Below, piece after piece: positions 1,675-14,371 of a stretch of DNA of 14,600 nt. Source of the stretch: a virus; UHGV virus genome UHGV-0201016; one strand, 5' to 3'. The number at the start of each line of letters is the position of its first letter. Position 1 is the stretch's first letter. The notes below the pieces were generated by a model. That model was not told the DNA's origin and made no database searches. It worked only from the letters and a program-made list of their open reading frames with translations. The position numbers and the translations under genes are program-made.

Positions 1675-2514
1675 GTGGAAATCGACGTCAGTCATAACGC
1701 CCTTGCCGGTGGTCTTCTCTGTGCGGACGGCCAGTGGCGGCAGATTGTCACCATTGAGGACGCCCTGAAAGGCGGCTGCACACTGTTCGACATTGAGCAG
1801 CTCAAACGTGAAAACAGCGCCGACGATTTTAAAAACCTGTTCATGTGTGAATTTGTTGACGACAAGGCGTCGGTGTTCCCGTTCGAGGAGCTGCAACGCT
1901 GCATGGTCGACACGCTGGAAGAATGGGAAGACTATGCGCCGTTTGCCGCGAATCCGTTCGGCTCCCGCCCGGTATGGATTGGTTACGACCCGTCACACCG
2001 TGGCGACAGTGCCGGATGCGTGGTGCTGGCACCGCCGGTGGTGGCCGGTGGCAAATTCAGAATACTTGAGCGTCACCAGTGGAAAGGCATGGACTTTGCC
2101 ACCCAGGCGGAATCCATCCGCAAACTCACCGAAAAATATAACGTTGAATACATCGGTATTGATGCCACCGGCCTCGGTGTCGGCGTGTTCCAGCTCGTGC
2201 GCTCGTTCTATCCCGCCGCGCGCGACATCCGCTACACGCCGGAAATGAAAACCGCAATGGTGCTCAAGGCAAAAGACGTTATCCGCCGTGGCTGTCTGGA
2301 ATATGACGTCAGCGCCACCGACATCACCAGCTCGTTTATGGCTATCCGCAAGACCATGACCAGCAGCGGACGCAGCGCCACCTATGAGGCCAGCCGCAGC
2401 GAGGAAGCCAGCCACGCCGACCTCGCCTGGGCGACCATGCACGCCCTGTTAAATGAGCCACTCACCGCCGGTATCAGCACCCCGCTGACATCCACCATTC
2501 TGGAGTTTTACTGA
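1675..2514 (+). pseudogene. P: Terminase large (ATPase/nuclease) subunit, P2 gpP-like, 3' fragment only; 5' part deleted
   Basis: The frame opens only after the stop at 1609-1611 and the first start codon is GTG at 1675, giving at most ~300 codons against a recalled ~590 for gpP. The fragment contains a nuclease-like region (PVWIGYDPSHRGDSAGCVV). Its stop overlaps the portal start (TGATG, 2512-2516). The upstream space is occupied by gpI on the other strand. Confidence 0.7.
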
Positions 2515-3548
2515 TGAGCAAGAAAAAAGGGAAAACACCGCAACCTGCGGCAAAAACAATGACCGCCAGCGCCCCGAAAATGGAGGCATTCACCTTTGGT
2601 GAGCCGGTGCCGGTACTCGACCGCCGTGACATTCTGGATTACGTCGAGTGCATCAGTAACGGCAGATGGTATGAGCCGCCGGTCAGCTTTACCGGTCTGG
2701 CAAAAAGCCTGCGTGCTGCCGTGCATCACAGCTCACCGATTTACGTTAAACGTAATATTCTGGCTTCAACGTTTATCCCGCACCCGTTGCTTTCCCAGCA
2801 GGATTTCAGCCGCTTTGTGCTGGATTTTCTGGTGTTCGGTAATGCGTTTCTGGAAAAGCGCTACAGCACCACCGGTAAGGTCATCAGACTGGAAACCTCA
2901 CCGGCAAAATATACCCGTCGTGGCGTGGAAGAGGATGTTTACTGGTGGGTGCCGTCCTTCAACGAGCCGGCAGCCTTCGCGCCCGGCTCCGTGTTTCACC
3001 TGCTGGAGCCCGATATTAATCAGGAGCTGTACGGCCTGCCGGAATATCTCAGCGCCCTTAACTCTGCCTGGCTGAATGAATCGGCCACGCTGTTCCGCCG
3101 CAAGTATTACGAAAACGGCGCACATGCCGGATACATCATGTACGTCACCGATGCCGTGCAGGATCGCAACGATATCGAAATGCTTCGCGAAAACATGGTT
3201 AAGTCGAAAGGCCGCAACAACTTTAAAAACCTGTTTCTCTATGCCCCGCAGGGGAAAGCCGACGGCATTAAAATTATCCCGCTCAGTGAAGTGGCAACGA
3301 AGGACGATTTTTTTAATATCAAAAAAGCCAGCGCCGCTGACCTGCTGGACGCGCACCGCATCCCCTTTCAGTTGATGGGAGGCAAGCCGGAGAACGTCGG
3401 GTCGCTGGGTGATATTGAGAAAGTGGCAAAGGTCTTTGTCCGCAATGAGCTTATCCCGCTACAGGACAGGATCCGCGAGATAAACGGCTGGCTCGGTCAG
3501 GAGGTCATCCGCTTTAAAAACTACTCACTGGACACTGACAACGGCTGA
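2514..3548 (+). CDS. Q: Phage portal (capsid vertex) protein, P2 gpQ-like (344 aa)
   Basis: Complete ORF translationally coupled to the terminase fragment; basic Lys-rich N-terminus; length and position (last gene before cos, about 170 bp from the cohesive-end sequence) match P2 Q. Confidence 0.85.
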   Translation: MSKKKGKTPQPAAKTMTASAPKMEAFTFGEPVPVLDRRDILDYVECISNGRWYEPPVSFTGLAKSLRAAVHHSSPIYVKRNILASTFIPHPLLSQQDFSRFVLDFLVFGNAFLEKRYSTTGKVIRLETSPAKYTRRGVEEDVYWWVPSFNEPAAFAPGSVFHLLEPDINQELYGLPEYLSALNSAWLNESATLFRRKYYENGAHAGYIMYVTDAVQDRNDIEMLRENMVKSKGRNNFKNLFLYAPQGKADGIKIIPLSEVATKDDFFNIKKASAADLLDAHRIPFQLMGGKPENVGSLGDIEKVAKVFVRNELIPLQDRIREINGWLGQEVIRFKNYSLDTDNG

Positions 3549-3717: not shown

Positions 3718-3736
3718 GTGCTTTCCCCGCCTCGCC
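3718..3736. other. cos cohesive-end sequence, P2 type (19 nt)
   Basis: gtgctttccccgcctcgcc is the reverse complement of GGCGAGGCGGGGAAAGCAC, the 19-nt P2 cohesive end as I recall it. It lies between the portal gene and the cargo operon, as in P2 (Q - cos - old). Confidence 0.7.
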
Positions 3737-3865: not shown

Positions 3866-5836
3866 TTAAAGGTCATCAATTAAACCTAAAGGCAAACCGT
3901 CCTCACCAACCGAGCTATAATGAGCGATAATATTCGAAAGTTCACCAGTAGAAAACGAATTAGGCAAATCATTATCAACTAATATAATCTGGCACGGAAC
4001 ATTTTTTCTTTCTGCTTTTTGAACTGTATTCAATAGTTGTTCATAAATATTTTGATACTTCATCGGATCTGACATTCCCTCAAGGTCATCCTCGACTGCA
4101 AGAGTTTCTTTTGAATATTTTTCCTTGGTCTGTTTCCCTAAATATTTGCCAACCGTATCAAATATCAAAAGTAAAGGATGGTTAACATTATGATCTATTG
4201 CATAATCAAGAATAGACAAAAGATACCCAATAGAAGAAATAGTTCTCAAACCTCCGGATGTTATTTTAAAATATTCTTTTTCTCTTATAACAGGAATGTA
4301 ATAGCTTTCAGAGATTTTTATCCCCGTTCTGTTTTTGATATTAATACCCTTCAAATACTGACTAAATCTATCACCCAAACCTTGTAAAATGCCCTCCATG
4401 CTAGGTGCGTTTTTCTTTAACGCCTCCAAGCGTTCAGTTAATGCTTCAATATCTTTTCTCAGTACCTGATACTTTTCAAGCAGTTCCTCTTGCTGGTTTC
4501 TAACCTTCAAATCTTTTACTAACTGCTCCCTAACCTTCTCATTTTTTGATATCTCTTTAATATAAAAATCTCTCTGAGTCAAGAATGGTGTAATCATTGA
4601 CTGGCTTTCTTCGTCAATCAATTCTCTCAACTCGTGAAGTCGTTCATCTAATTCTTTTTTATAACCTGATTCTTTTTTTAATTTAAATGACATTTCTGAG
4701 ATCATGTCATTAATATTTCGTCTACGTCGACTAAGTGAATTCAACTCTTCATTAAGATCTTTTTCTGATGAAATTTCAAATGGAAAATCAGAATCATCTA
4801 TTTTAATGTGGCTATCACAGATTGGACAGGAAAATACTTCCTTATCCAATACACCAATGCGAGAATTTGCTGTTTTAATCGCTTTGAGTTTTTCAATATC
4901 ATTATCATAGTCATTTTTTAACCGCGAATATTTATCAATCTTATCCTCAAGCGCACTAATATTTAATATGCACTCTTTGTATTTAAGCGAAATAAAATTG
5001 TGAGCATCTTTAAATTCTGTATACTGTATGGAATCCGCTTTCATATTTTTATCGAGAGCAGACAAACCTGCAACAAGTTCTTCTAAAACAAGATCTATCC
5101 TATTAATCTCATCATCAATTGATTCAATTGTTTCATAGTCTGTATCGCGAAGAAATTCAGATATTATCTGATACTTCCTATTTAATTCCGTTACTAAACT
5201 ACTTTTTGCAGATATTTCACCTTGGAGTCTGGCGATGCTTTCATCCAACACATTGAACATGTATTTAAAAACTTCTTTCGTAAATGCGTAGCGGGACCAA
5301 TCACCCAATCGCAAGAAAGATTTACTACCAATATCATCCTGACTTACATAAACAAATTTATATATATTTCTAAAACTTAACCTGCGCATCTGTGAATGCG
5401 CTTTAGAAGGAGACACCTTAATTTCAATCTTTGGGAAATTAAGACTATCAAGTAAAAACTCCGAAAAAACACCATCAACATTTGATAATGGGCTATAATT
5501 AGGAGCGTATTTTTTCGGAAAATGTTTATGTAAATCATCAAACTTACAACGATAAACTTCTATTGCTTTTTTATGATCATAGATATCTCTTACGATTGTG
5601 AATACAGTATCATTGATCACTACTTCAAGAGCAGCATAGTTTACTGATGTTTTTATTTCATCTGCTAAATCTATAGAGCTAGCACCTAAAAGATAATTAA
5701 TAAACTCCAGAATGCTTGACTTACCTGTGTCAGAGTCTCCGTAGATAACATTGAGACCTTTATAAAAAGTAGTGACGTAGTTTTTACGAACACCAACAAG
5801 AATCAAACTATTGATATTGAGATATGATTTCATCAT
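3866..5836 (-). CDS. SMC/Rad50/RecN-like ABC ATPase with long central coiled coil and a CxxC motif (LmuB-like position)
   Basis: 656-aa ORF. Walker A GDSDTGKS (aa 33-40, nt 5717-5740); about 300 aa of heptad-like charged sequence; CPIC at aa 337-340 (nt 4817-4828) near the middle of that region; ABC-signature-like ITSGGLRT (about aa 523-530); Walker-B-like HPLLLIFDT (Asp560 followed by Thr, not Glu). N-terminus resembles RecN/RecF/SMC heads. Confidence 0.75.
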   Translation of the reverse strand: MMKSYLNINSLILVGVRKNYVTTFYKGLNVIYGDSDTGKSSILEFINYLLGASSIDLADEIKTSVNYAALEVVINDTVFTIVRDIYDHKKAIEVYRCKFDDLHKHFPKKYAPNYSPLSNVDGVFSEFLLDSLNFPKIEIKVSPSKAHSQMRRLSFRNIYKFVYVSQDDIGSKSFLRLGDWSRYAFTKEVFKYMFNVLDESIARLQGEISAKSSLVTELNRKYQIISEFLRDTDYETIESIDDEINRIDLVLEELVAGLSALDKNMKADSIQYTEFKDAHNFISLKYKECILNISALEDKIDKYSRLKNDYDNDIEKLKAIKTANSRIGVLDKEVFSCPICDSHIKIDDSDFPFEISSEKDLNEELNSLSRRRRNINDMISEMSFKLKKESGYKKELDERLHELRELIDEESQSMITPFLTQRDFYIKEISKNEKVREQLVKDLKVRNQQEELLEKYQVLRKDIEALTERLEALKKNAPSMEGILQGLGDRFSQYLKGINIKNRTGIKISESYYIPVIREKEYFKITSGGLRTISSIGYLLSILDYAIDHNVNHPLLLIFDTVGKYLGKQTKEKYSKETLAVEDDLEGMSDPMKYQNIYEQLLNTVQKAERKNVPCQIILVDNDLPNSFSTGELSNIIAHYSSVGEDGLPLGLIDDL

Positions 5837-6345
5837 TTCTCCTTGAAAACTTGATTTATAACAGAGTTTAACTTAGAGGTAGGCAATGCTTGTAGCGGTA
5901 ACAATGCTTCGGATAGTCGTTTTATTTCTTTAAAATATCCATCAGTCAATGAGCTAGCAAATTCCTTACCTTTTTCAGATAAAAATAATTTAACACTCTC
6001 ATTATTTTTTTTCTCAGCTGAGAGCAATCCCCGCAATGACATAATTTTTATAAGATATTTCACTTTGGAATTGTCGAATAAGATATCTACATTTGATGAA
6101 AAACTCTTTATTGTATAAGTTAACTGGGACTCGACACAAGCAGGCTTTTTCCCCGAAATTGTAAGAGCATAATCAATTTTTGATGGGTTTTTTATCAGAT
6201 ACATAAAAATTTGTATTTTATTAATATCTAATGATAACACTCCTTTTTTGCTATGAGATAATATAGATATAGCAATGGCAAGCATAGCAAAATTCAAGCT
6301 ATACTCTTCATCAAGAGGAATATACGGCAAGTTATTTTTCTTCAT
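5833..6345 (-). CDS. Small protein of unknown function (170 aa), middle gene of the three-gene operon (LmuC-like position)
   Basis: Complete ORF. Its start overlaps the stop of the hydrolase gene by 14 nt, and its TGA overlaps the ATG of the ATPase gene (ATGA at 5833-5836). No recognisable motif. Confidence 0.55.
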   Translation of the reverse strand: MKKNNLPYIPLDEEYSLNFAMLAIAISILSHSKKGVLSLDINKIQIFMYLIKNPSKIDYALTISGKKPACVESQLTYTIKSFSSNVDILFDNSKVKYLIKIMSLRGLLSAEKKNNESVKLFLSEKGKEFASSLTDGYFKEIKRLSEALLPLQALPTSKLNSVINQVFKEK

Positions 6346-7555
6346 GATTACCTCGCCGTAATTGCTCCAAAGTTTCTACGCTGGTTTCAGATGACCAGAC
6401 AATATCTCTATCATTTTTGTTAGCCAGTTGATGCAACATTCCTTTCTTATGTATCGTTTCTAAACTTTTTATAAGAGAATCTAACGACGACTTATCCTCT
6501 TGGGCTATTCGTCTATGAACAGCAGCAATAAATTTATCTGGGGAAATTGAATTCGCGATATATTGCTCATACTCTTCCTGGTAAATCTCCCTTATTTTAG
6601 AATACAAATGACCAAGTAGTTTCCTATCGTAATCACTCGTAAAAATATTTCTCGCAAGCTCAGCATTATAATAATATTCCTTTGCATGCATAGCGATATC
6701 CTGATGTATATCTGCGACAATCATTTTTAAGACGAAATACTCATTATCATATTGTTTCTCATCAGAAAAACGCTCAACACATATCTTCTTGGGTGCTTCT
6801 AAATTTATCTGCTGAATAAATTGCTTTACCGCAACAAACACTGTAGACGAGCTGTTTTCGGGCTTGCAAATTGAGCTATGCCCTTCATTAACTGCAATTG
6901 AGTTATTTCGTTCACTATCCATCGGTAATGCGCTTTTTTTATCAACTATAGTGTCATGAGAACCATAAACATATCTAGTGATAGGAAGTTTTTTGCTACA
7001 ATTTATCCAGCGCCTATTCAATGTATCAGTCGCTTCACTTAACAATCCAAGATCTACTAACTGAGCATTTGAAGATACCATTGAAGTTATATTCGCCAAT
7101 TTAGCACCAAAGTGAGGGACTGCTAACGAAATGAATCCAATTATATTAGATTGTTCCTCATGCTCAACTTTTTTTAGAATTAGATTTTTTGATATTAACC
7201 CCCCCATACTATGGGCAATTATTATAATTCGAGAGTAATCACTTAACGTTACCCTAATCTCAGTATACAATAACTCAGCTATTTCATCAGTTGGTAAATT
7301 TCTCTCTAACTTATTTTTCTTAGAGAAAATACGAGCCAATAATCCTGACGTTTTAGCATACGTTTGTGTAAATTTGGTGAAATAGTTGAAACATGCAATA
7401 TCAAATACATTGCCAATGTCTTCATCTTCTGCTAATAGTTTTGGAAATGAAGTTTCTTTATTAAAGTTCCATGTTTCCAAACCACCATTTAATCCATGTA
7501 CAAATAGTATCAGGCTATCTTTTTTCTCGTGGCTTATCCATTCAACCATGCTCAT
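6332..7555 (-). CDS. Alpha/beta-hydrolase (lipase/esterase-type) fusion protein with a C-terminal all-helical domain of unknown function; candidate effector of the defence operon (LmuA-like position)
   Basis: 407-aa ORF. LILFVHGLNGG (HG oxyanion region); nucleophile elbow IIIIAHSMGGL with the Ser codon at 7208-7210; candidate acid GSHDTIVD; candidate His NEGHSSICK. Residues ~250-407 are charged and helical with no catalytic motif I recognise. AT-rich codon usage. Its last 14 nt overlap the next gene. Confidence 0.7.
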   Translation of the reverse strand: MSMVEWISHEKKDSLILFVHGLNGGLETWNFNKETSFPKLLAEDEDIGNVFDIACFNYFTKFTQTYAKTSGLLARIFSKKNKLERNLPTDEIAELLYTEIRVTLSDYSRIIIIAHSMGGLISKNLILKKVEHEEQSNIIGFISLAVPHFGAKLANITSMVSSNAQLVDLGLLSEATDTLNRRWINCSKKLPITRYVYGSHDTIVDKKSALPMDSERNNSIAVNEGHSSICKPENSSSTVFVAVKQFIQQINLEAPKKICVERFSDEKQYDNEYFVLKMIVADIHQDIAMHAKEYYYNAELARNIFTSDYDRKLLGHLYSKIREIYQEEYEQYIANSISPDKFIAAVHRRIAQEDKSSLDSLIKSLETIHKKGMLHQLANKNDRDIVWSSETSVETLEQLRRGNHEEK

Positions 7556-7603
7556 ATGCTTTTCTGCCGTGTATAAAAATTAAACCATAACAAACAATTC
7601 CTC

Positions 7604-7620
7604 AACAATAACATATTGTT
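7604..7620. promoter_or_regulatory. Inverted repeat AACAATA-N3-TATTGTT in the AT-rich intergenic region upstream of the cargo operon
   Basis: Perfect 7-bp arms with a 3-bp spacer, 50-65 bp upstream of the operon start (7555) and just downstream of the A stop; all-AT stem, so more likely a protein-binding site than a terminator. Confidence 0.3.
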
Positions 7621-7644
7621 ACCCCGTTTGACCGTTCTTTTCAA

Positions 7645-9927
7645 CTACCACTCACGCTGTCTGTCAAAAAAGTCGATATCGTTATCAAATTTAAAACGCT
7701 TATGCCCAAAATCCAAAACAGCTCCGCGAGCGAGAGCTTCAAGCTCCCAATAACTAGCCTGAATGTCACTTTGTGCAAGAAGAACCTTAATTTTCGGGAT
7801 AGTCTTTCTCTCCTGTCTTGTCAACCGGGCGGATGGGGCAGGAAAGTAGCTTCGACCATTGAAAGGGGTAAAGCTCTGCTGTGAACGATTACTGCATTTC
7901 AGTTCATTACTCAATAAGTCTCTAAGTACCTTCATAATGCCTGGCTCGGTCCAACTTAGAATCCCTTCATCTATTAAATTTAACACCGCTGCAGCATGCT
8001 CAGTCGGTGTGGGTGCCGGTAACGAAGTATCACCACCGTTGAGCTTTCCACAGTTATTGACAGGACTCCGAGGCGCGGCGATGCCGCTTTTTAAAGTCAA
8101 AGGCTCAACGACCGGAACTTTCGGCACAATGCGCCAGTCCGTCGTTCTGGTGATATGAATATGACGCGCGCCGAGATGCGGCGCGTAAATGCCGACCACT
8201 CTCTCGACTTCTTCCTCGTACTCGTTAACTTCATCCGACGGGCTACGGGCGACTCTGACAGTCTGACAATCGCGCGGAACATTTGCCCCACCCTGCGCGC
8301 TGATATACAACGCAAAATCACCACTGTCTGCGGCGGCGCGTGCAGCCTCGACGCGCTCGTCAAACTCATCAGCAATGCTGACGCCGCGCGGCAATTTGCG
8401 TAGTTCACGGTAAGCCCCCATTGTCGGCAGGCCAACCGTTTTAAATTGCGGGATGCGCCACGTTGACGCCCATGCGGTAACAGCCGCTGCAGTGTCTTTC
8501 AGCGGCCTGCCGGTGTCGTTATCGAGCTGACCATCCAGTGCATAGCCGTCGATGTTTTTTGAAATGTATTTCGCGATATATCCCGCAGCACCGCCCCGGT
8601 TAAGGTGTTTTGCCTGAAAACGGTTTCGCGCGGCTCCTCTTTCGTCGCCATCCTCTTTGAGCGCATAGCGACGCATGATTTCGATAATCTGGTTACGCTG
8701 GCGTGAATTACAAAAAAGCATCATATGCCAGTGCGGCGTTCCGTCGTGGTGTGGCTCGACGACACGCAAACCGTAGACCTGTAAATCATTATCCTTGAAT
8801 GCCGTGCGCATCAGGCTCCAGATACGGCAGAGATAACGCTGCGCATCCTTTGGATTAAATGCCTCATCGTTCCAGCCGTGATTAAGCTGCACGGTTTTAC
8901 TTTCGCCTTTTCCTACCTGACGTGTCGGGTGATACTTTGACGGCGCGGTCAGCGTGATAAACATCCCCACATCACCCTCTGCAGCGGCGTAACGCTCAAT
9001 ACCGGCAATGGTGTTCATCAGCTCCATCCGGCGAATTTCAGGATTAGAAATACTGCCCATCACCTTACTGATAAGGTCGATGCGCTCGCCGGTTTCCCTG
9101 TTTTCAAGGTCACACGATTTAAGAAATTCCAGATTTGCCTGGCGGCGCGCACGCACATCACGAATGGCGTGTTTACTGGCATAAGGAGAACGGTCTTTAT
9201 TGACCTCCCCGACAGCTATTAGTAACGCTTCATGCCAGCGCATACGCTGGCCTTTAAGCTGATGAGTCCACCACTCATCGTTAAACAGACGGGCAATGGC
9301 AGAATATGCCTGCCTCGTGGTCATCTGCCCTTTACGGTATTTTTTCCAGTAGAGCGGGGAAATATTGAAAGCACGTGCAGCGCCAGCAACATGACCATAG
9401 AGGTGAGCCTGCGCCTCATCCGTAAACAGCGATTCTTTTTCGCCATGCGCATCCACCCAGGCATCGCTGAGTTCCTCATACATCATGAAAAGCTGCGATG
9501 AGATACGGGCAGCAAACTTTTTCAGCTCCTTGTCATTCATTCCCGGCAGGCGCGCATAGTGGTCACGCTCTGCCAGAAACAGTAACGACGCGTCGGTGTT
9601 CATTTCATGGCGCTGATTCACACGCTCAATGCGCGGCCATAAACGACGCTGAAAAGTGGATGTGAGGAAATAAAACCCGTGCACCGGGCTTTTATTGCGC
9701 CGGATGTAGTCATAGCGTGAAGTAAACAGCGAGCGCAAAAAGTAAGGCAGGCGGTTAATCGTGGATAAAACACCTTGCACCTGATGCATCTCGTCACGTG
9801 TAAGGGGTCTTTCGCGCCCGACGGCCTCGCGTGGCGCGTTCCATGCATAAGCACCGGTAAACGCCTTACCGGTGCCTGCAGCAAATGCTGACGGAGGGAC
9901 AAAACGCCCGGAGGCTTTAACGGCCAT
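7645..9927 (-). CDS. A: Replication initiation protein, P2 gpA-like HUH rolling-circle endonuclease (761 aa from ATG at 9927)
   Basis: HUH motif PHWHMMLF and tyrosine motif GYIAKYISK are visible. The track ORF begins at TTG 9969; the first ATG is at 9927, giving 761 aa, the recalled length of P2 A. Confidence 0.85.
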   Translation of the reverse strand: MAVKASGRFVPPSAFAAGTGKAFTGAYAWNAPREAVGRERPLTRDEMHQVQGVLSTINRLPYFLRSLFTSRYDYIRRNKSPVHGFYFLTSTFQRRLWPRIERVNQRHEMNTDASLLFLAERDHYARLPGMNDKELKKFAARISSQLFMMYEELSDAWVDAHGEKESLFTDEAQAHLYGHVAGAARAFNISPLYWKKYRKGQMTTRQAYSAIARLFNDEWWTHQLKGQRMRWHEALLIAVGEVNKDRSPYASKHAIRDVRARRQANLEFLKSCDLENRETGERIDLISKVMGSISNPEIRRMELMNTIAGIERYAAAEGDVGMFITLTAPSKYHPTRQVGKGESKTVQLNHGWNDEAFNPKDAQRYLCRIWSLMRTAFKDNDLQVYGLRVVEPHHDGTPHWHMMLFCNSRQRNQIIEIMRRYALKEDGDERGAARNRFQAKHLNRGGAAGYIAKYISKNIDGYALDGQLDNDTGRPLKDTAAAVTAWASTWRIPQFKTVGLPTMGAYRELRKLPRGVSIADEFDERVEAARAAADSGDFALYISAQGGANVPRDCQTVRVARSPSDEVNEYEEEVERVVGIYAPHLGARHIHITRTTDWRIVPKVPVVEPLTLKSGIAAPRSPVNNCGKLNGGDTSLPAPTPTEHAAAVLNLIDEGILSWTEPGIMKVLRDLLSNELKCSNRSQQSFTPFNGRSYFPAPSARLTRQERKTIPKIKVLLAQSDIQASYWELEALARGAVLDFGHKRFKFDNDIDFFDRQREW

Positions 9928-10192
9928 ATGAGCCAAAAGCCTCTGAACAACGCCTGCTGAGTTGCTCAACCTGCGCGTTTAAATCAGCAAAAGACTTTGC
10001 GCTTCCGGTCAGAATATCGTGATGCATCAGGCCGGAAACGAGCTGGCTTAATTTCGGATAATAACCAACCACCGCCAGCCATTCCTGACCGGCGTTTTTA
10101 CCGCTTTCCGCTCTCTTTTTCTCGTGGAGAATAAACTGAAAGCTGTCACTGGTAACGACATAACGTTCGCCAATTTCAATACGAATACTCAT
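9917..10192 (-). CDS. Hypothetical early protein (P2 orf83-like position)
   Basis: 91-aa ORF in the chain of start/stop-overlapping genes between B and A; no motif recognised. Confidence 0.55.
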   Translation of the reverse strand: MSIRIEIGERYVVTSDSFQFILHEKKRAESGKNAGQEWLAVVGYYPKLSQLVSGLMHHDILTGSAKSFADLNAQVEQLSRRCSEAFGSYGR

Positions 10193-11503: not shown

Positions 11504-11736
11504 TTCCAGACCCTCCGGCTTTTCAGAAAGGTCAGAGCCTTATTTAACGGACTCTGTTTTTTGGTGCGGATAATGATTCCCTTACGCCCCTTACCGTGGG
11601 TAATGGTGAAGTCAATCGCCCTTGGGCTTTCGTTACGCAATAACTGAGCAATACAACGAGGCTCGTTCATCCTTTCCACCTTAAGCCGCACGGCCATGTC
11701 TTGATTTGCTGTAACTAATGCGATTTTTCCAGTCAT
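11500..11736 (-). CDS. Hypothetical protein (P2 orf78-like), start uncertain
   Basis: The track ORF starts at 11760; the internal Met at 11736 gives 78 aa and less overlap with the upstream gene; 4-nt overlap with the B start. Confidence 0.45.
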   Translation of the reverse strand: MTGKIALVTANQDMAVRLKVERMNEPRCIAQLLRNESPRAIDFTITHGKGRKGIIIRTKKQSPLNKALTFLKSRRVWK

Positions 11737-12037
11737 GCCATTCTGTCGGAGCTTCATCAACTAGCTGGGCTGCGTACTTGTCCCACTCACGGCGATTAAT
11801 CCATAACTCAGCATGACCGCCCGGCTTTAATGGGTCCGTCATATAAAAGGCTGGTAACTTGCCTGCTTTCGCCATTTCAGCAACAGCGCGAGGCGTCTTA
11901 CCGATGTAAAGAGCAAAACCCTCTTTCGAGAGCAAATCCGACGGTGCGGCTGCAAGTTTGATGTCACATTTTTTACTTTTTGTGAGATCAGATACTTTTT
12001 CTCCAACATCGTTATTCATTTCTGATCCAATACTCAT
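11681..12037 (-). CDS. cox: Cox-like excisionase / early-promoter regulator (HTH), start uncertain
   Basis: HTH-like segment FALYIGKTPRAVAEMAKAGKLPAFYMTDP resembles the P2 Cox / 186 Apl family. The track start is TTG at 12067; ATG at 12037 has GAGG 8 nt upstream. Confidence 0.6.
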   Translation of the reverse strand: MSIGSEMNNDVGEKVSDLTKSKKCDIKLAAAPSDLLSKEGFALYIGKTPRAVAEMAKAGKLPAFYMTDPLKPGGHAELWINRREWDKYAAQLVDEAPTEWHDWKNRISYSKSRHGRAA

Positions 12038-12141
12038 TTTGATATCCTCAACTTTGGTGCCATTCAACCAGAGCTATTTGAAGCCGCTCTGCGTTGTTCT
12101 GGTGTGTCGCATACAACATAAATTACGAGATACGACAATTC
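12038..12141. promoter_or_regulatory. Immunity switch region between divergent cox-like and C-repressor genes (expected site of early and repressor promoters and operators)
   Basis: 104-bp intergenic region between divergent regulators. Only weak sigma70-like hexamers (for example TTGTTC-N17-CATAAA toward C) could be picked out by eye; no element is resolved. Confidence 0.35.
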
Positions 12142-12453
12142 ATGTCAAATACACAAATCACATCTCAAGCAGAGAAACTCGCACTTATTCGGGAATCAGA
12201 AAGAATGACAAGGAAGCAAGTTGCTGAATTAACTGGAATTAACTACAACACCTATGCTGGATATGAGCAGGGAAAAGTAAAGATGTCTTTTGACGCAGGT
12301 ATGAAATTTTTCAAGCCAGAAAGATTTCGCAAGTACCGTGACTGGTTCATGTTTGATGAAACTGATCCCGCTGGCGGACAAATAGCCCCGGCGCTCGCGC
12401 ACATTGGGCAAGACTCAACAACCTTGCACCACTCAGACCAAAAGACTGGCTGA
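12142..12453 (+). CDS. C: Immunity repressor, P2 C-type (Xre-like HTH), 103 aa
   Basis: HTH segment RKQVAELTGINYNTYAGYEQGK. The track start at 12094 is TTG; the first ATG (12142) gives about 100 aa, as for P2 C. It lies upstream of and co-oriented with int, as in P2. Confidence 0.75.
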   Translation: MSNTQITSQAEKLALIRESERMTRKQVAELTGINYNTYAGYEQGKVKMSFDAGMKFFKPERFRKYRDWFMFDETDPAGGQIAPALAHIGQDSTTLHHSDQKTG

Positions 12454-12546
12454 CGATTTATTCAGCATATGTGTGCAGTAAATGTACGAAAGAAAATTGC
12501 ATTAATTTTCAAGTAGTAGAAGTAAACAGCGTCATCGGAGGGCTTT

Positions 12547-13542
12547 ATGTCTATTAAAAAGCTCGATGATGGTCGTTATGAAGTGGACGTCAGACCGCAG
12601 GGTGCAGATGGAAAACGTATCAGGCGGAAATTTAAAACTAAAGGTGAAGCTCAAGCATTCGAACGTCATGTGCTGGTTAACTACCACAACAAAGAGTGGC
12701 TGGAGAAGCCAGCCGACCGCCGAACTCTTACAGAGTTGTTAGGCAGATGGTGGATATATCACGGAAAATCACATGAGCGTGGAAATATTGAACGGGGGCG
12801 TTTGACGACAATAATCGCCAAATTTGCAGAAATGGGAGTGTCCAGAGCTGACCAGTTAACAAAGAAAACGATAACTGATTATCGAGTTGTAATGATGAAC
12901 GATGGTCTAAAACCAGCCAGCGTAAATCGGCATCTGGCAATAATGAGCGGGATGTTCACCAAGTTAATTGACGCCGGTGAATACCACTCTCACAACCCGT
13001 TCCGTGAGGTTAAGCGGTTACGTGAAGCTGTTACAGAAATGGCTTTTTTGTCCAGTGAAGAGATTACGCGGCTGTTATCCATGCTTGATGGTGATGAGTT
13101 AAATGCAACTCTGGTCTGCCTTTCTACTGGTGGACGCTGGAGTGAAGTGTCTAATTTGAAAGCTGAACACATCATTAACCAGATGGTTACGTTTATGAAA
13201 ACTAAAAACGGAAAGCGCAGGACAATTCCCGTTTCGCAGGACCTGATTAAAAGGATCAAGACCAAAAATTCAGGCAGGCTTTTTAATGCCAGTTACTACA
13301 AAGTGCGTAACGCTCTCAGGGAAGTAAAACCCGATTTACCTGACGGACAAGCAGTACATGTTTTGAGGCATACATTTGCCACACATTTTATAATGAATGG
13401 AGGTAACATAATCACATTGCAGCGCATCCTGGGTCATTCTAACATTCAGCAAACTATGACCTACGCACACTTTGCACCGGATTTCTTACAAGATGCTGTG
13501 ACTCTTAACCCGGTGTCAGGAATGTCCATAATGCGTCCATAA
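12547..13542 (+). CDS. int: Tyrosine integrase, P2 Int family (331 aa)
   Basis: GGAGGG lies 5 nt upstream of the ATG. Catalytic-box motifs HVLRHTFATHF and TMTYAHF are present; the N-terminus MSIKKLDDGRYEVDVRP is typical of P2/186 integrases. Confidence 0.9.
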   Translation: MSIKKLDDGRYEVDVRPQGADGKRIRRKFKTKGEAQAFERHVLVNYHNKEWLEKPADRRTLTELLGRWWIYHGKSHERGNIERGRLTTIIAKFAEMGVSRADQLTKKTITDYRVVMMNDGLKPASVNRHLAIMSGMFTKLIDAGEYHSHNPFREVKRLREAVTEMAFLSSEEITRLLSMLDGDELNATLVCLSTGGRWSEVSNLKAEHIINQMVTFMKTKNGKRRTIPVSQDLIKRIKTKNSGRLFNASYYKVRNALREVKPDLPDGQAVHVLRHTFATHFIMNGGNIITLQRILGHSNIQQTMTYAHFAPDFLQDAVTLNPVSGMSIMRP

Positions 13543-13630
13543 ACCAGAGTTAACTAGAGCCAATTGAAGCGATATGAGTAATTTAACTAATTGTAATACA
13601 ACAGAAAATACCGCTACGGCGGGGGCTACC
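13543..13630. other. attR junction region (phage/host boundary), core not resolved
   Basis: This 88-bp interval separates the int stop from the first codon with recognisable PflA homology. The P2 attP core is not present, so the element has a different site specificity. Confidence 0.35.
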
Positions 13631-14371
13631 AAGTCAGTTATTGGTCGCATTCACTCCTTTGAATCCTGTGGAACCGTAGACGGCCCAGGTATTCGCTTTA
13701 TCACCTTTTTCCAGGGCTGCCTGATGCGCTGCCTGTATTGTCATAACCGCGACACCTGGGACACGCATGGCGGTAAAGAAGTTACCGTTGAAGATTTGAT
13801 GAAGGAAGTGGTGACCTATCGCCACTTTATGAACGCTTCCGGCGGCGGCGTTACCGCATCCGGCGGTGAAGCAATCCTGCAAGCTGAGTTTGTTCGTGAC
13901 TGGTTCCGCGCCTGCAAAAAAGAAGGCATTCATACCTGTCTGGACACCAACGGTTTTGTTCGTCGTTACGATCCGGTGATTGATGAACTGCTGGAAGTAA
14001 CCGACCTGGTAATGCTCGATCTCAAACAGATGAACGACGAGATCCACCAAAATCTGGTTGGAGTTTCCAACCACCGCACGCTGGAGTTCGCTAAATATCT
14101 GGCGAACAAAAATGTGAAGGTGTGGATCCGCTACGTTGTTGTCCCAGGCTGGTCTGACGATGACGATTCAGCGCATCGCCTCGGTGAATTTACCCGTGAT
14201 ATGGGCAACGTTGAGAAAATCGAGCTTCTCCCCTACCACGAGCTGGGCAAACACAAATGGGTGGCAATGGGTGAAGAGTACAAACTCGACGGTGTTAAAC
14301 CACCGAAGAAAGAGACCATGGAACGCGTGAAAGGCATTCTTGAGCAGTACGGTCATAAGGTAATGTTCTAA
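13574..14371 (+). CDS. pflA: Pyruvate formate-lyase activating enzyme (glycyl-radical activase, radical SAM) with a 19-codon N-terminal extension; canonical start position is AAG
   Basis: CLMRCLYC radical-SAM cluster motif; residues 21-265 match E. coli PflA (246 aa, [14 protein letters not shown]...) as recalled. Codon 13631-13633 is AAG where ATG is expected, and the only in-frame start is ATG at 13574. Confidence 0.85.

Follow-up and report, generated by a model that had tools for sequence, protein, structure and literature searches.

The viral genome UHGV-0201016, of which a stretch of 14,600 nucleotides was analysed here (the window), carries a cassette of three tightly packed minus-strand genes, lmuA, lmuC and lmuB. 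The first of these, lmuA, encodes an effector in which an alpha/beta-hydrolase head is joined to a helical C-terminal domain. With a probability of roughly 85%, the cassette is a 'short', zinc-hook Lamassu (ABC-three component, ABC-3C) system of the lipase subtype, which is carried as cargo in the gpA-gpQ hotspot of a decaying P2-like prophage of E. coli and works as proposed below. The system is already known: its proteins are named by Pfam, PADLOC and RefSeq, and a relative has been tested experimentally. In RefSeq, LmuA is called 'ABC-three component system protein', LmuC 'ABC-three component system middle component 4' and LmuB 'AAA family ATPase'. ABC-3C systems with CTD8 and MC4 (PF20284, PF20290) are the same family as this system under another name, both Pfam models scoring well above cut-off and no difference between the two having been found.

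The lmuA gene is a single open reading frame (ORF) at exactly 6332-7555, as in the preliminary description of the window, and lies on the minus strand, which that description had left unstated, with an ATG start at 7555. Its product matches the PADLOC LmuA profile PDLC03851 over residues 3-406 (E=5.9e-109), and 373 database proteins match LmuA at E<=1e-5. The start of the gene (7549-7555) contains two in-frame ATGs, Met1 and Met3, codon 3 being the second ATG. The 405-aa database cluster representative of LmuA begins at Met3, as do some homologues, and either of the two may be the true start.

Family profiles, residue conservation and the predicted structure support the assignment of the LmuA head (residues 1-255) to a lipase-type family of serine alpha/beta-hydrolases, with catalytic residues that appear intact. 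LmuA scores above the curated Pfam cut-offs for DUF676 (2e-9; 37.7 bits against 20.3), PGAP1 (2e-7; 31.2 bits against 24.3) and LCAT (4e-5; 23.4 bits against 21), and likewise for Abhydrolase_1. The canonical alpha/beta-hydrolase is built of a central beta-sheet with flanking helices and places its nucleophile after strand 5, its acid after strand 7, its histidine after strand 8 and the oxyanion HG after strand 3. In the full-length AlphaFold model, where the head core reaches a predicted local distance difference test score (pLDDT) of 85-95, the elbow, acid, histidine and oxyanion HG all occupy these canonical places in the topology, and Ser116 sits between strand 109-115 and helix 117-131. 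An alignment with 32 homologues of 42-92% identity shows H20, G21, H115-S116-M117-G118-G119, S143-L-A-V-P-H148-x-G150, D201 and H226 to be invariant. The preliminary description had named an HG motif, the AHSMGG elbow with Ser116 and downstream Asp and His candidates, all of which are found at the residues it gave and are invariant in the same alignment. Together with the 373 database matches and the Pfam scores, this goes far beyond what chance would produce. The serine esterase/lipase fold that it proposed is borne out by the DUF676, PGAP1 and LCAT matches and by the position of Ser116, Asp201 and His226 at the canonical triad strands.

A comparison of the family profile with PDB sequences brings up RavL of Legionella, annotated as 'putative lipase' (3.5e-6), as well as BlEst2, a lipase from Bacillus licheniformis; LPLA2, GPI inositol-deacylase and LCAT match more weakly. 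The AHSMGG elbow aligns with AHSRGG of RavL and SYSKGG of BlEst2, and SLAVPHFG aligns with 'MGTPFNGS' and 'LGTPHHGS' of the same two proteins, respectively. The lipid-acting DUF676/PGAP1/LCAT-LPLA2 enzymes (such as GPI inositol-deacylase 8K9R, LPLA2 4X90, RavL 7X2P and BlEst2 6WPX) have in common with LmuA the alpha/beta core, the HG oxyanion motif, an xHSxGG elbow and an (S/T)LxxPHxG-like motif. The similarity is low (E 1e-9 to 1e-5, about 15% structural identity), and unlike LmuA these enzymes have no CTD8 and are not found in a defence operon.

The nucleophile of Bacillus subtilis-type lipases (Lipase_2, family I.4) lies in an Ala-His-Ser-Met-Gly pentapeptide, and a likeness to Bacillus lipases had been remarked upon in the preliminary description. 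The AHSMG pentapeptide is indeed present in LmuA, but Pfam Lipase_2 is absent from its matches at E<=1 and membership of the Bacillus lipase family was thus rejected; the shared pentapeptide is a resemblance rather than a sign of membership. Among the LmuA homologues, Lipase_2 matches just one remote protein, and that weakly.

Two inserts in the head, residues 61-86, which are rich in aromatic and basic residues, and residues 147-172, have a pLDDT below 50 in the full-length model. Invariant residues lie at or near both (F56, Y58, F59, T60 and F77; S161, Q165 and L169), and the inserts may form a lid or a membrane-binding element that becomes ordered only in the active oligomer.

The same hydrolase head is found at the N-terminus of a 1,333 aa NACHT protein encoded on the Bacillus cereus plasmid pB (WP_170924507.1; positions 3959-7960 of locus L009). 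The 255 N-terminal residues of this protein are 32% identical to the LmuA head and conserve every catalytic motif, and the gene adjoins a nucleotidyltransferase/HEPN pair. Judged by its sequence it looks like an NLR-type defence protein with the same effector, whose sensor is a single-chain NACHT NTPase (~1,330 aa) instead of an SMC-like complex and which is without CTD8. This distribution fits the idea of the hydrolase head as a portable immune effector module.

The C-terminal domain of LmuA (residues 255-407, CTD8) is probably a swappable adaptor and, by homology, also an oligomerisation module, a view supported by structure prediction and by comparison with solved relatives. It is poorly resolved in the full-length AlphaFold model, which was built from 32 sequences (pLDDT 30-68). 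A model of the domain on its own, built from 38 diverse sequences, comprises six helices with a pLDDT of 93.6 and a predicted template modelling score (pTM) of 0.88. When this domain model is used as a Foldseek query against the PDB, Lamassu LmuA chains take every one of the first 17 places (probability 0.85-1.0, template modelling (TM) score 0.48-0.65, ~150 columns), after which the list falls to probabilities below 0.3 and TM scores below 0.4. The matched chains belong to the Salmonella LmuA tetramer, Salmonella LmuACB, V. cholerae LmuA and LmuABC, and a further type II Lamassu. When the C-terminal domain was compared on its own with 1.84 billion representative proteins, only 55 matched. Ten of these were scanned with Pfam; seven have the same hydrolase head and two a Cap4 nuclease head, and both Cap4-headed proteins are LmuA by PADLOC. 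Most of the remaining matches have the same length and layout as LmuA.

In the solved Lamassu complexes the C-terminal domain of LmuA makes the core contacts to LmuB and LmuC while the effector head adds little, and LmuA that has been released tetramerises via the same domain (PMC12663957; 10.1101/2025.03.14.643221). The complex in which the C-terminal domain provides these core contacts has the composition A1B2C1 (PMC12663957). In Lamassu, LmuA joins an N-terminal effector domain to one of the family-specific C-terminal domains CTD1-12. Lipase-type LmuA proteins fall into CTD8 and CTD9, and their activation has been proposed to proceed by liberation and oligomerisation (10.1101/2025.03.14.643221). 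The preliminary description had envisaged a helical C-terminal half without a catalytic motif that docks the effector to its partners. The half is indeed helical, with no catalytic motif recognised, but the boundary of the domain lies nearer to residue 255 than to residue 245, where it had been drawn. Docking agrees with the Pfam CTD8 match (1.5e-35), with the occurrence of CTD8 on Cap4 heads as well, and with the outcome of the separate Foldseek search on this domain that had been suggested there, LmuA chains alone making up the best 17. The term 'adaptor' by itself is too narrow, however, given that the domain of the solved relatives also drives oligomerisation.

LmuC sits between lmuA and lmuB and its gene overlaps both. 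Lamassu LmuB proteins are SMC/Rad50-like ABC ATPases with a Walker A motif, a coiled coil that may or may not bear a CxxC zinc hook, a signature motif and a deviant Walker B. LmuB of this cassette contains the motifs of its family, namely Walker A (GDSDTGKS, K39), a single CxxC zinc hook (CPIC, residues 337-340), the TSGG signature and a Walker B motif, LLLIFD-T, that fits the hhhhD[Q/S/T/E] pattern described for short Lamassu (PMC12663957). The A-C-B gene order with the same Pfam families turns up in surroundings unrelated to one another: on a Methylomonas chromosome, in a conjugative element of P. aeruginosa and in an E. coli mobile element (T4CP/MobC/ArdC). The closest Klebsiella homologue lies in the same kind of mobile element, on a contig that ends at lmuA. 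The coordinates of all features are collected in Table 1.

Table 1. Features of the lipase-type Lamassu cassette and its borders in the 14,600-nucleotide window of UHGV-0201016
Feature	Position	Strand	Evidence
lmuA, Lamassu effector, 407 aa (alpha/beta-hydrolase head and CTD8)	6332..7555	-	ORF; PADLOC LmuA; 373 homologues
Alpha/beta-hydrolase head, residues 1-255, DUF676/PGAP1/LCAT-type serine hydrolase (predicted)	6791..7555	-	
His20-Gly21, oxyanion-hole HG motif, end of strand 14-20	7493..7498	-	invariant in 32 homologues; model
AHSMGG nucleophile elbow, residues 114-119 (Ser116 codon 7208-7210)	7199..7216	-	HSMGG invariant; model
SLAVPHFG motif, residues 143-150, signature common to matched lipase-type relatives	7106..7129	-	S-L-A-V-P-H-x-G invariant
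Asp201, predicted catalytic acid, just past strand 192-198	6953..6955	-	invariant; model topology; NACHT-fused head
His226, predicted catalytic base, just past strand 219-222	6878..6880	-	invariant; model topology; NACHT-fused head
Six-helix C-terminal domain, residues 255-407	6335..6793	-	Pfam CTD8; domain model; Foldseek
Pfam CTD8 core, residues 265-389	6389-6763	-	E=1.5e-35
lmuC, middle component (MC4), 170 aa, 14-nt overlap with lmuA	5833..6345	-	Pfam MC4 2.2e-26; PADLOC LmuC 4.1e-52
lmuB, SMC/Rad50-like ABC ATPase, 656 aa, 4-nt overlap with lmuC	3866..5836	-	PADLOC LmuB 5.1e-235, residues 2-656
P2 gpA replication endonuclease, one hotspot border	7645..9969	-	Pfam Phage_GPA 3.5e-123
P2 gpQ-like portal, other hotspot border	2514..3548	+	Pfam Phage_portal; RefSeq annotation of 98%-identical O157:H7 prophage
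P2 cos sequence GGCGAGGCGGGGAAAGCAC, 130 nt downstream of lmuB	3718..3736	-	exact match
17-bp palindrome AACAATA-ACA-TATTGTT (plus strand), in the 89-nt gap from gpA stop to lmuA start	7604..7620	.	

A second, diverged lipase-type Lamassu occurs in E. coli 1EC187 (NZ_CP061108.1) and altogether in 13 E. coli genomes. Its LmuA has 402 aa, and the system is housed by an integrated mobile element that encodes ArdC, MobC and a type IV coupling protein rather than by a prophage. The three proteins of this variant are 55%, 45% and 52% identical to those of the system described here (55% for LmuA).

If the system behaves like its Lamassu homologues that have been solved and tested, a single LmuA would be kept inactive in the uninfected cell on a dimer of LmuB together with LmuC, to which it would be held via its C-terminal domain. 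LmuB would sense phage DNA ends or replication intermediates, upon which LmuA would be released and self-associate via the C-terminal domain and the hydrolase of the head would be switched on. The infected cell would then die before phage is released, that is by abortive infection. From its family, the head may cleave an acyl ester of a membrane lipid in the manner of a phospholipase, so that death would come from membrane damage and not from DNA cleavage; this killing mechanism is plausible. No structure or substrate is known to us for any lipase-type LmuA, an effector of interest in that a DNA-sensing SMC complex would here activate a hydrolase with a target other than DNA.

The V. cholerae DdmABC and Salmonella enterica LmuACB systems (9NXX, 9NY1, 9NY5, 9HR5, 9HQX, 9HQU, 9UXH, 9UXI, 9UXL) have the same three-component organisation, an SMC/Rad50-like LmuB sensor, an LmuA C-terminal fold that is the same as in the CTD8 model, and the same proposed logic of sequestration, release and oligomerisation. 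They differ in that their effector head is a Cap4 double-stranded DNA nuclease, whereas here it is an alpha/beta-hydrolase, and at the level of sequence none of the three proteins encoded here shows detectable similarity to them. In addition, LmuB of V. cholerae is without the zinc hook that is present here.

Protection against phages or plasmids that depends on the ATPase, on LmuC and on the catalytic residues of the effector, with an abortive-infection phenotype, has been demonstrated for relatives only (10.1101/2022.05.11.491447; PMC12663957). The closest in kind is Lamassu Ec-Lipase, a short Lamassu of clade H with a lipase and a zinc hook (Haudiquet et al., PNAS 2025), that protects against lambda-vir (PMC12663957). 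Defence by Ec-Lipase is abolished by either LmuB K42A or LmuA H215A, and the toxicity of over-expression is lost only with H215A (PMC12663957). Like the present locus, Ec-Lipase comes from E. coli, is organised as LmuA(lipase)-LmuC-LmuB and has an LmuB in which a Walker A lysine is combined with a CxxC zinc hook; the effector of Ec-Lipase depends on a catalytic histidine (PMC12663957).

Several points weigh against a lipase-type Lamassu that functions in this way. The locus is known from its sequence and from predicted structures alone. The structural neighbours of the head are generic alpha/beta-hydrolases, with thioesterases and carboxylesterases among them, and because of this the fold does not fix a lipid as the substrate. 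The two head inserts and the C-terminal domain are of low confidence in the full-length model. The published numbering of Ec-Lipase (K42, H215) agrees neither with K39 and H226 of this system nor with K38 and H225 of the second E. coli variant; Ec-Lipase is therefore probably a relative, from another allele or clade, and not this system. Foldseek gives the C-terminal domain modest E-values (0.012-1.4), and CTD8 is therefore equated with the fold of the solved LmuA proteins because of the exclusivity of the matches and the TM scores. None of the CTD8, LmuC and LmuB sequences matched a solved Lamassu chain in the PDB. More broadly, PDB sequence searches with LmuA, LmuB, LmuC, the two Cap4-CTD8 proteins and the 38-sequence CTD8 profile returned no Lamassu chain, and the link between CTD8 and solved LmuA came solely from the structure-based search.

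The locus could instead be a Lamassu whose LmuA head hydrolyses another ester, a thioester or an amide, for example an acyl-carrier or acyl-CoA thioester, an acyl group of a lipoprotein or of the envelope, or a protein, in which case death or arrest would not come about by membrane lysis. This is quite unlikely. Weak Pfam matches to Palm_thioest and Hydrolase_4 (S33 peptidase) speak for such an enzyme, and none of the papers found gives a substrate for a lipase-type LmuA. However, DUF676, PGAP1 and LCAT are the only specific families above threshold, all significant matches among PDB sequences are to annotated lipases or phospholipases, and SLAVPHxG aligns with the lipase motifs of BlEst2 and RavL.

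A related possibility retains both the hydrolase and the CTD8 switch. The head may be a hydrolase that is activated by CTD8 oligomerisation and acts on a specific acyl or ester target, as opposed to a bulk phospholipase, the inserts at 61-86 and 147-172 forming a lid that is opened by the oligomer. This is tentative and on balance unlikely. If true, such an oligomer-switched specific hydrolase would give SMC-type DNA sensors a new means of killing or arresting the cell, and the system would be easy to study because E. coli B carries it natively.

The placement of the Lamassu cassette as prophage cargo is apparent from its composition and from its neighbours. Its three genes have a GC content of 32.8%, compared with 52-56% in the flanks, and it lies between genes for gpA and a gpQ-like portal. 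The sequence GGCGAGGCGGGGAAAGCAC at 3718..3736 is an exact match to the cos of P2. A defence hotspot of P2-like phages between gpA and cos/gpQ, including adjacency to cos, has been described (Rousset et al. 2022, PMC9122126), and members of the Lamassu family have been seen earlier in prophage hotspots (10.1101/2022.05.11.491447; PMC9122126). As an annotation the result is routine, namely a lipase-subtype Lamassu at a site known to house defence genes in P2-like prophages. P2 Tin, Old and other gpA-gpQ cargo (PMC9122126) occupy the same prophage position and presumably likewise protect the lysogen against other phages, but their proteins and mechanisms are unrelated to those of this Lamassu. 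Identity with the 'three genes with no clear predicted domain' that Rousset et al. 2022 reported from the P2 hotspot was considered, and nothing links the two.

The palindrome at 7604-7620 overlaps a weak promoter-like site and is, from its sequence, a possible operator or promoter element for the cassette. When the cassette was scanned for promoters and terminators, promoter-like sites proved no commoner than in shuffled sequence.

The full-length cassette is present in 96 of 5,426 complete E. coli genomes. Identity is 99% or more in 84 of the copies, with O157:H7 accounting for many of these, and 95-99% in 12, among them that of E. coli B (97.3%). E. coli B (NZ_CP115178.1, 2097298-2116521) carries the same cassette, at 97-98% protein identity, in a P2-like prophage at yegR/yegS; this prophage has undergone a separate deletion, unlike the one in the window, and its portal gene is truncated. 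The immunity and integrase end of the window (11685-13542) is only 65-70% identical to the prophages of O157:H7 and E. coli B, with large parts unaligned, and the prophage here adjoins pflA (13574-14371) and not yegR/yegS. It follows that one and the same cassette travels on P2-like phages that differ in integrase and attachment site. Together the deletions suggest that the defence cassette has outlived separate events of prophage decay, and an intact cassette in independently deleted prophages fits with retention by the host of phage-borne defence genes. The cassette occurs in lineages of O157:H7 and also, with 97% identity, in E. coli B, and a widely used laboratory lineage may therefore have an active Lamassu, which could affect work with phages and plasmids.

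The prophage in the window is itself defective, as seen at 1-2514. The terminase ATPase gene P is without its first ~290 codons, with the junction at ~1618/1619, and the match to the intact O157:H7 prophage begins at 1618. The truncated gene is joined straight to two minus-strand genes, tail gene I (943-1554) and tail-fibre gene H (below 940); the deletion has therefore removed the genes for capsid and lysis as well as most of those for tail and baseplate. It is conceivable, and highly improbable, that the cassette too is a decayed or inactive passenger of this defective prophage that no longer serves in defence. Such a view could appeal to the deletion with its truncated terminase gene fused beside tail gene I, and to the cassette having no megablast match among 50,697 sequenced phage genomes. 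Nevertheless, all three ORFs of the cassette run their full length, their stop and start codons overlap, and the catalytic, Walker A and zinc-hook motifs are all intact; the cassette is also intact and 97-99.8% conserved in the 96 complete E. coli genomes. Moreover, its carriers include independently deleted prophages such as that of E. coli B, which suggests that it is retained while the phage decays.

Near the start of the window, a tandem repeat of 132 bp (75-412; 2.6 copies, 83% matches) encodes on the minus strand 44-aa tail-fibre repeats (…TAQDATTARKGLVQLSSATNSxSETLAATPKAVKxAYDLANGKY…). The 136-aa ORF on the plus strand at 9-419 is probably a shadow of this tail-fibre repeat.

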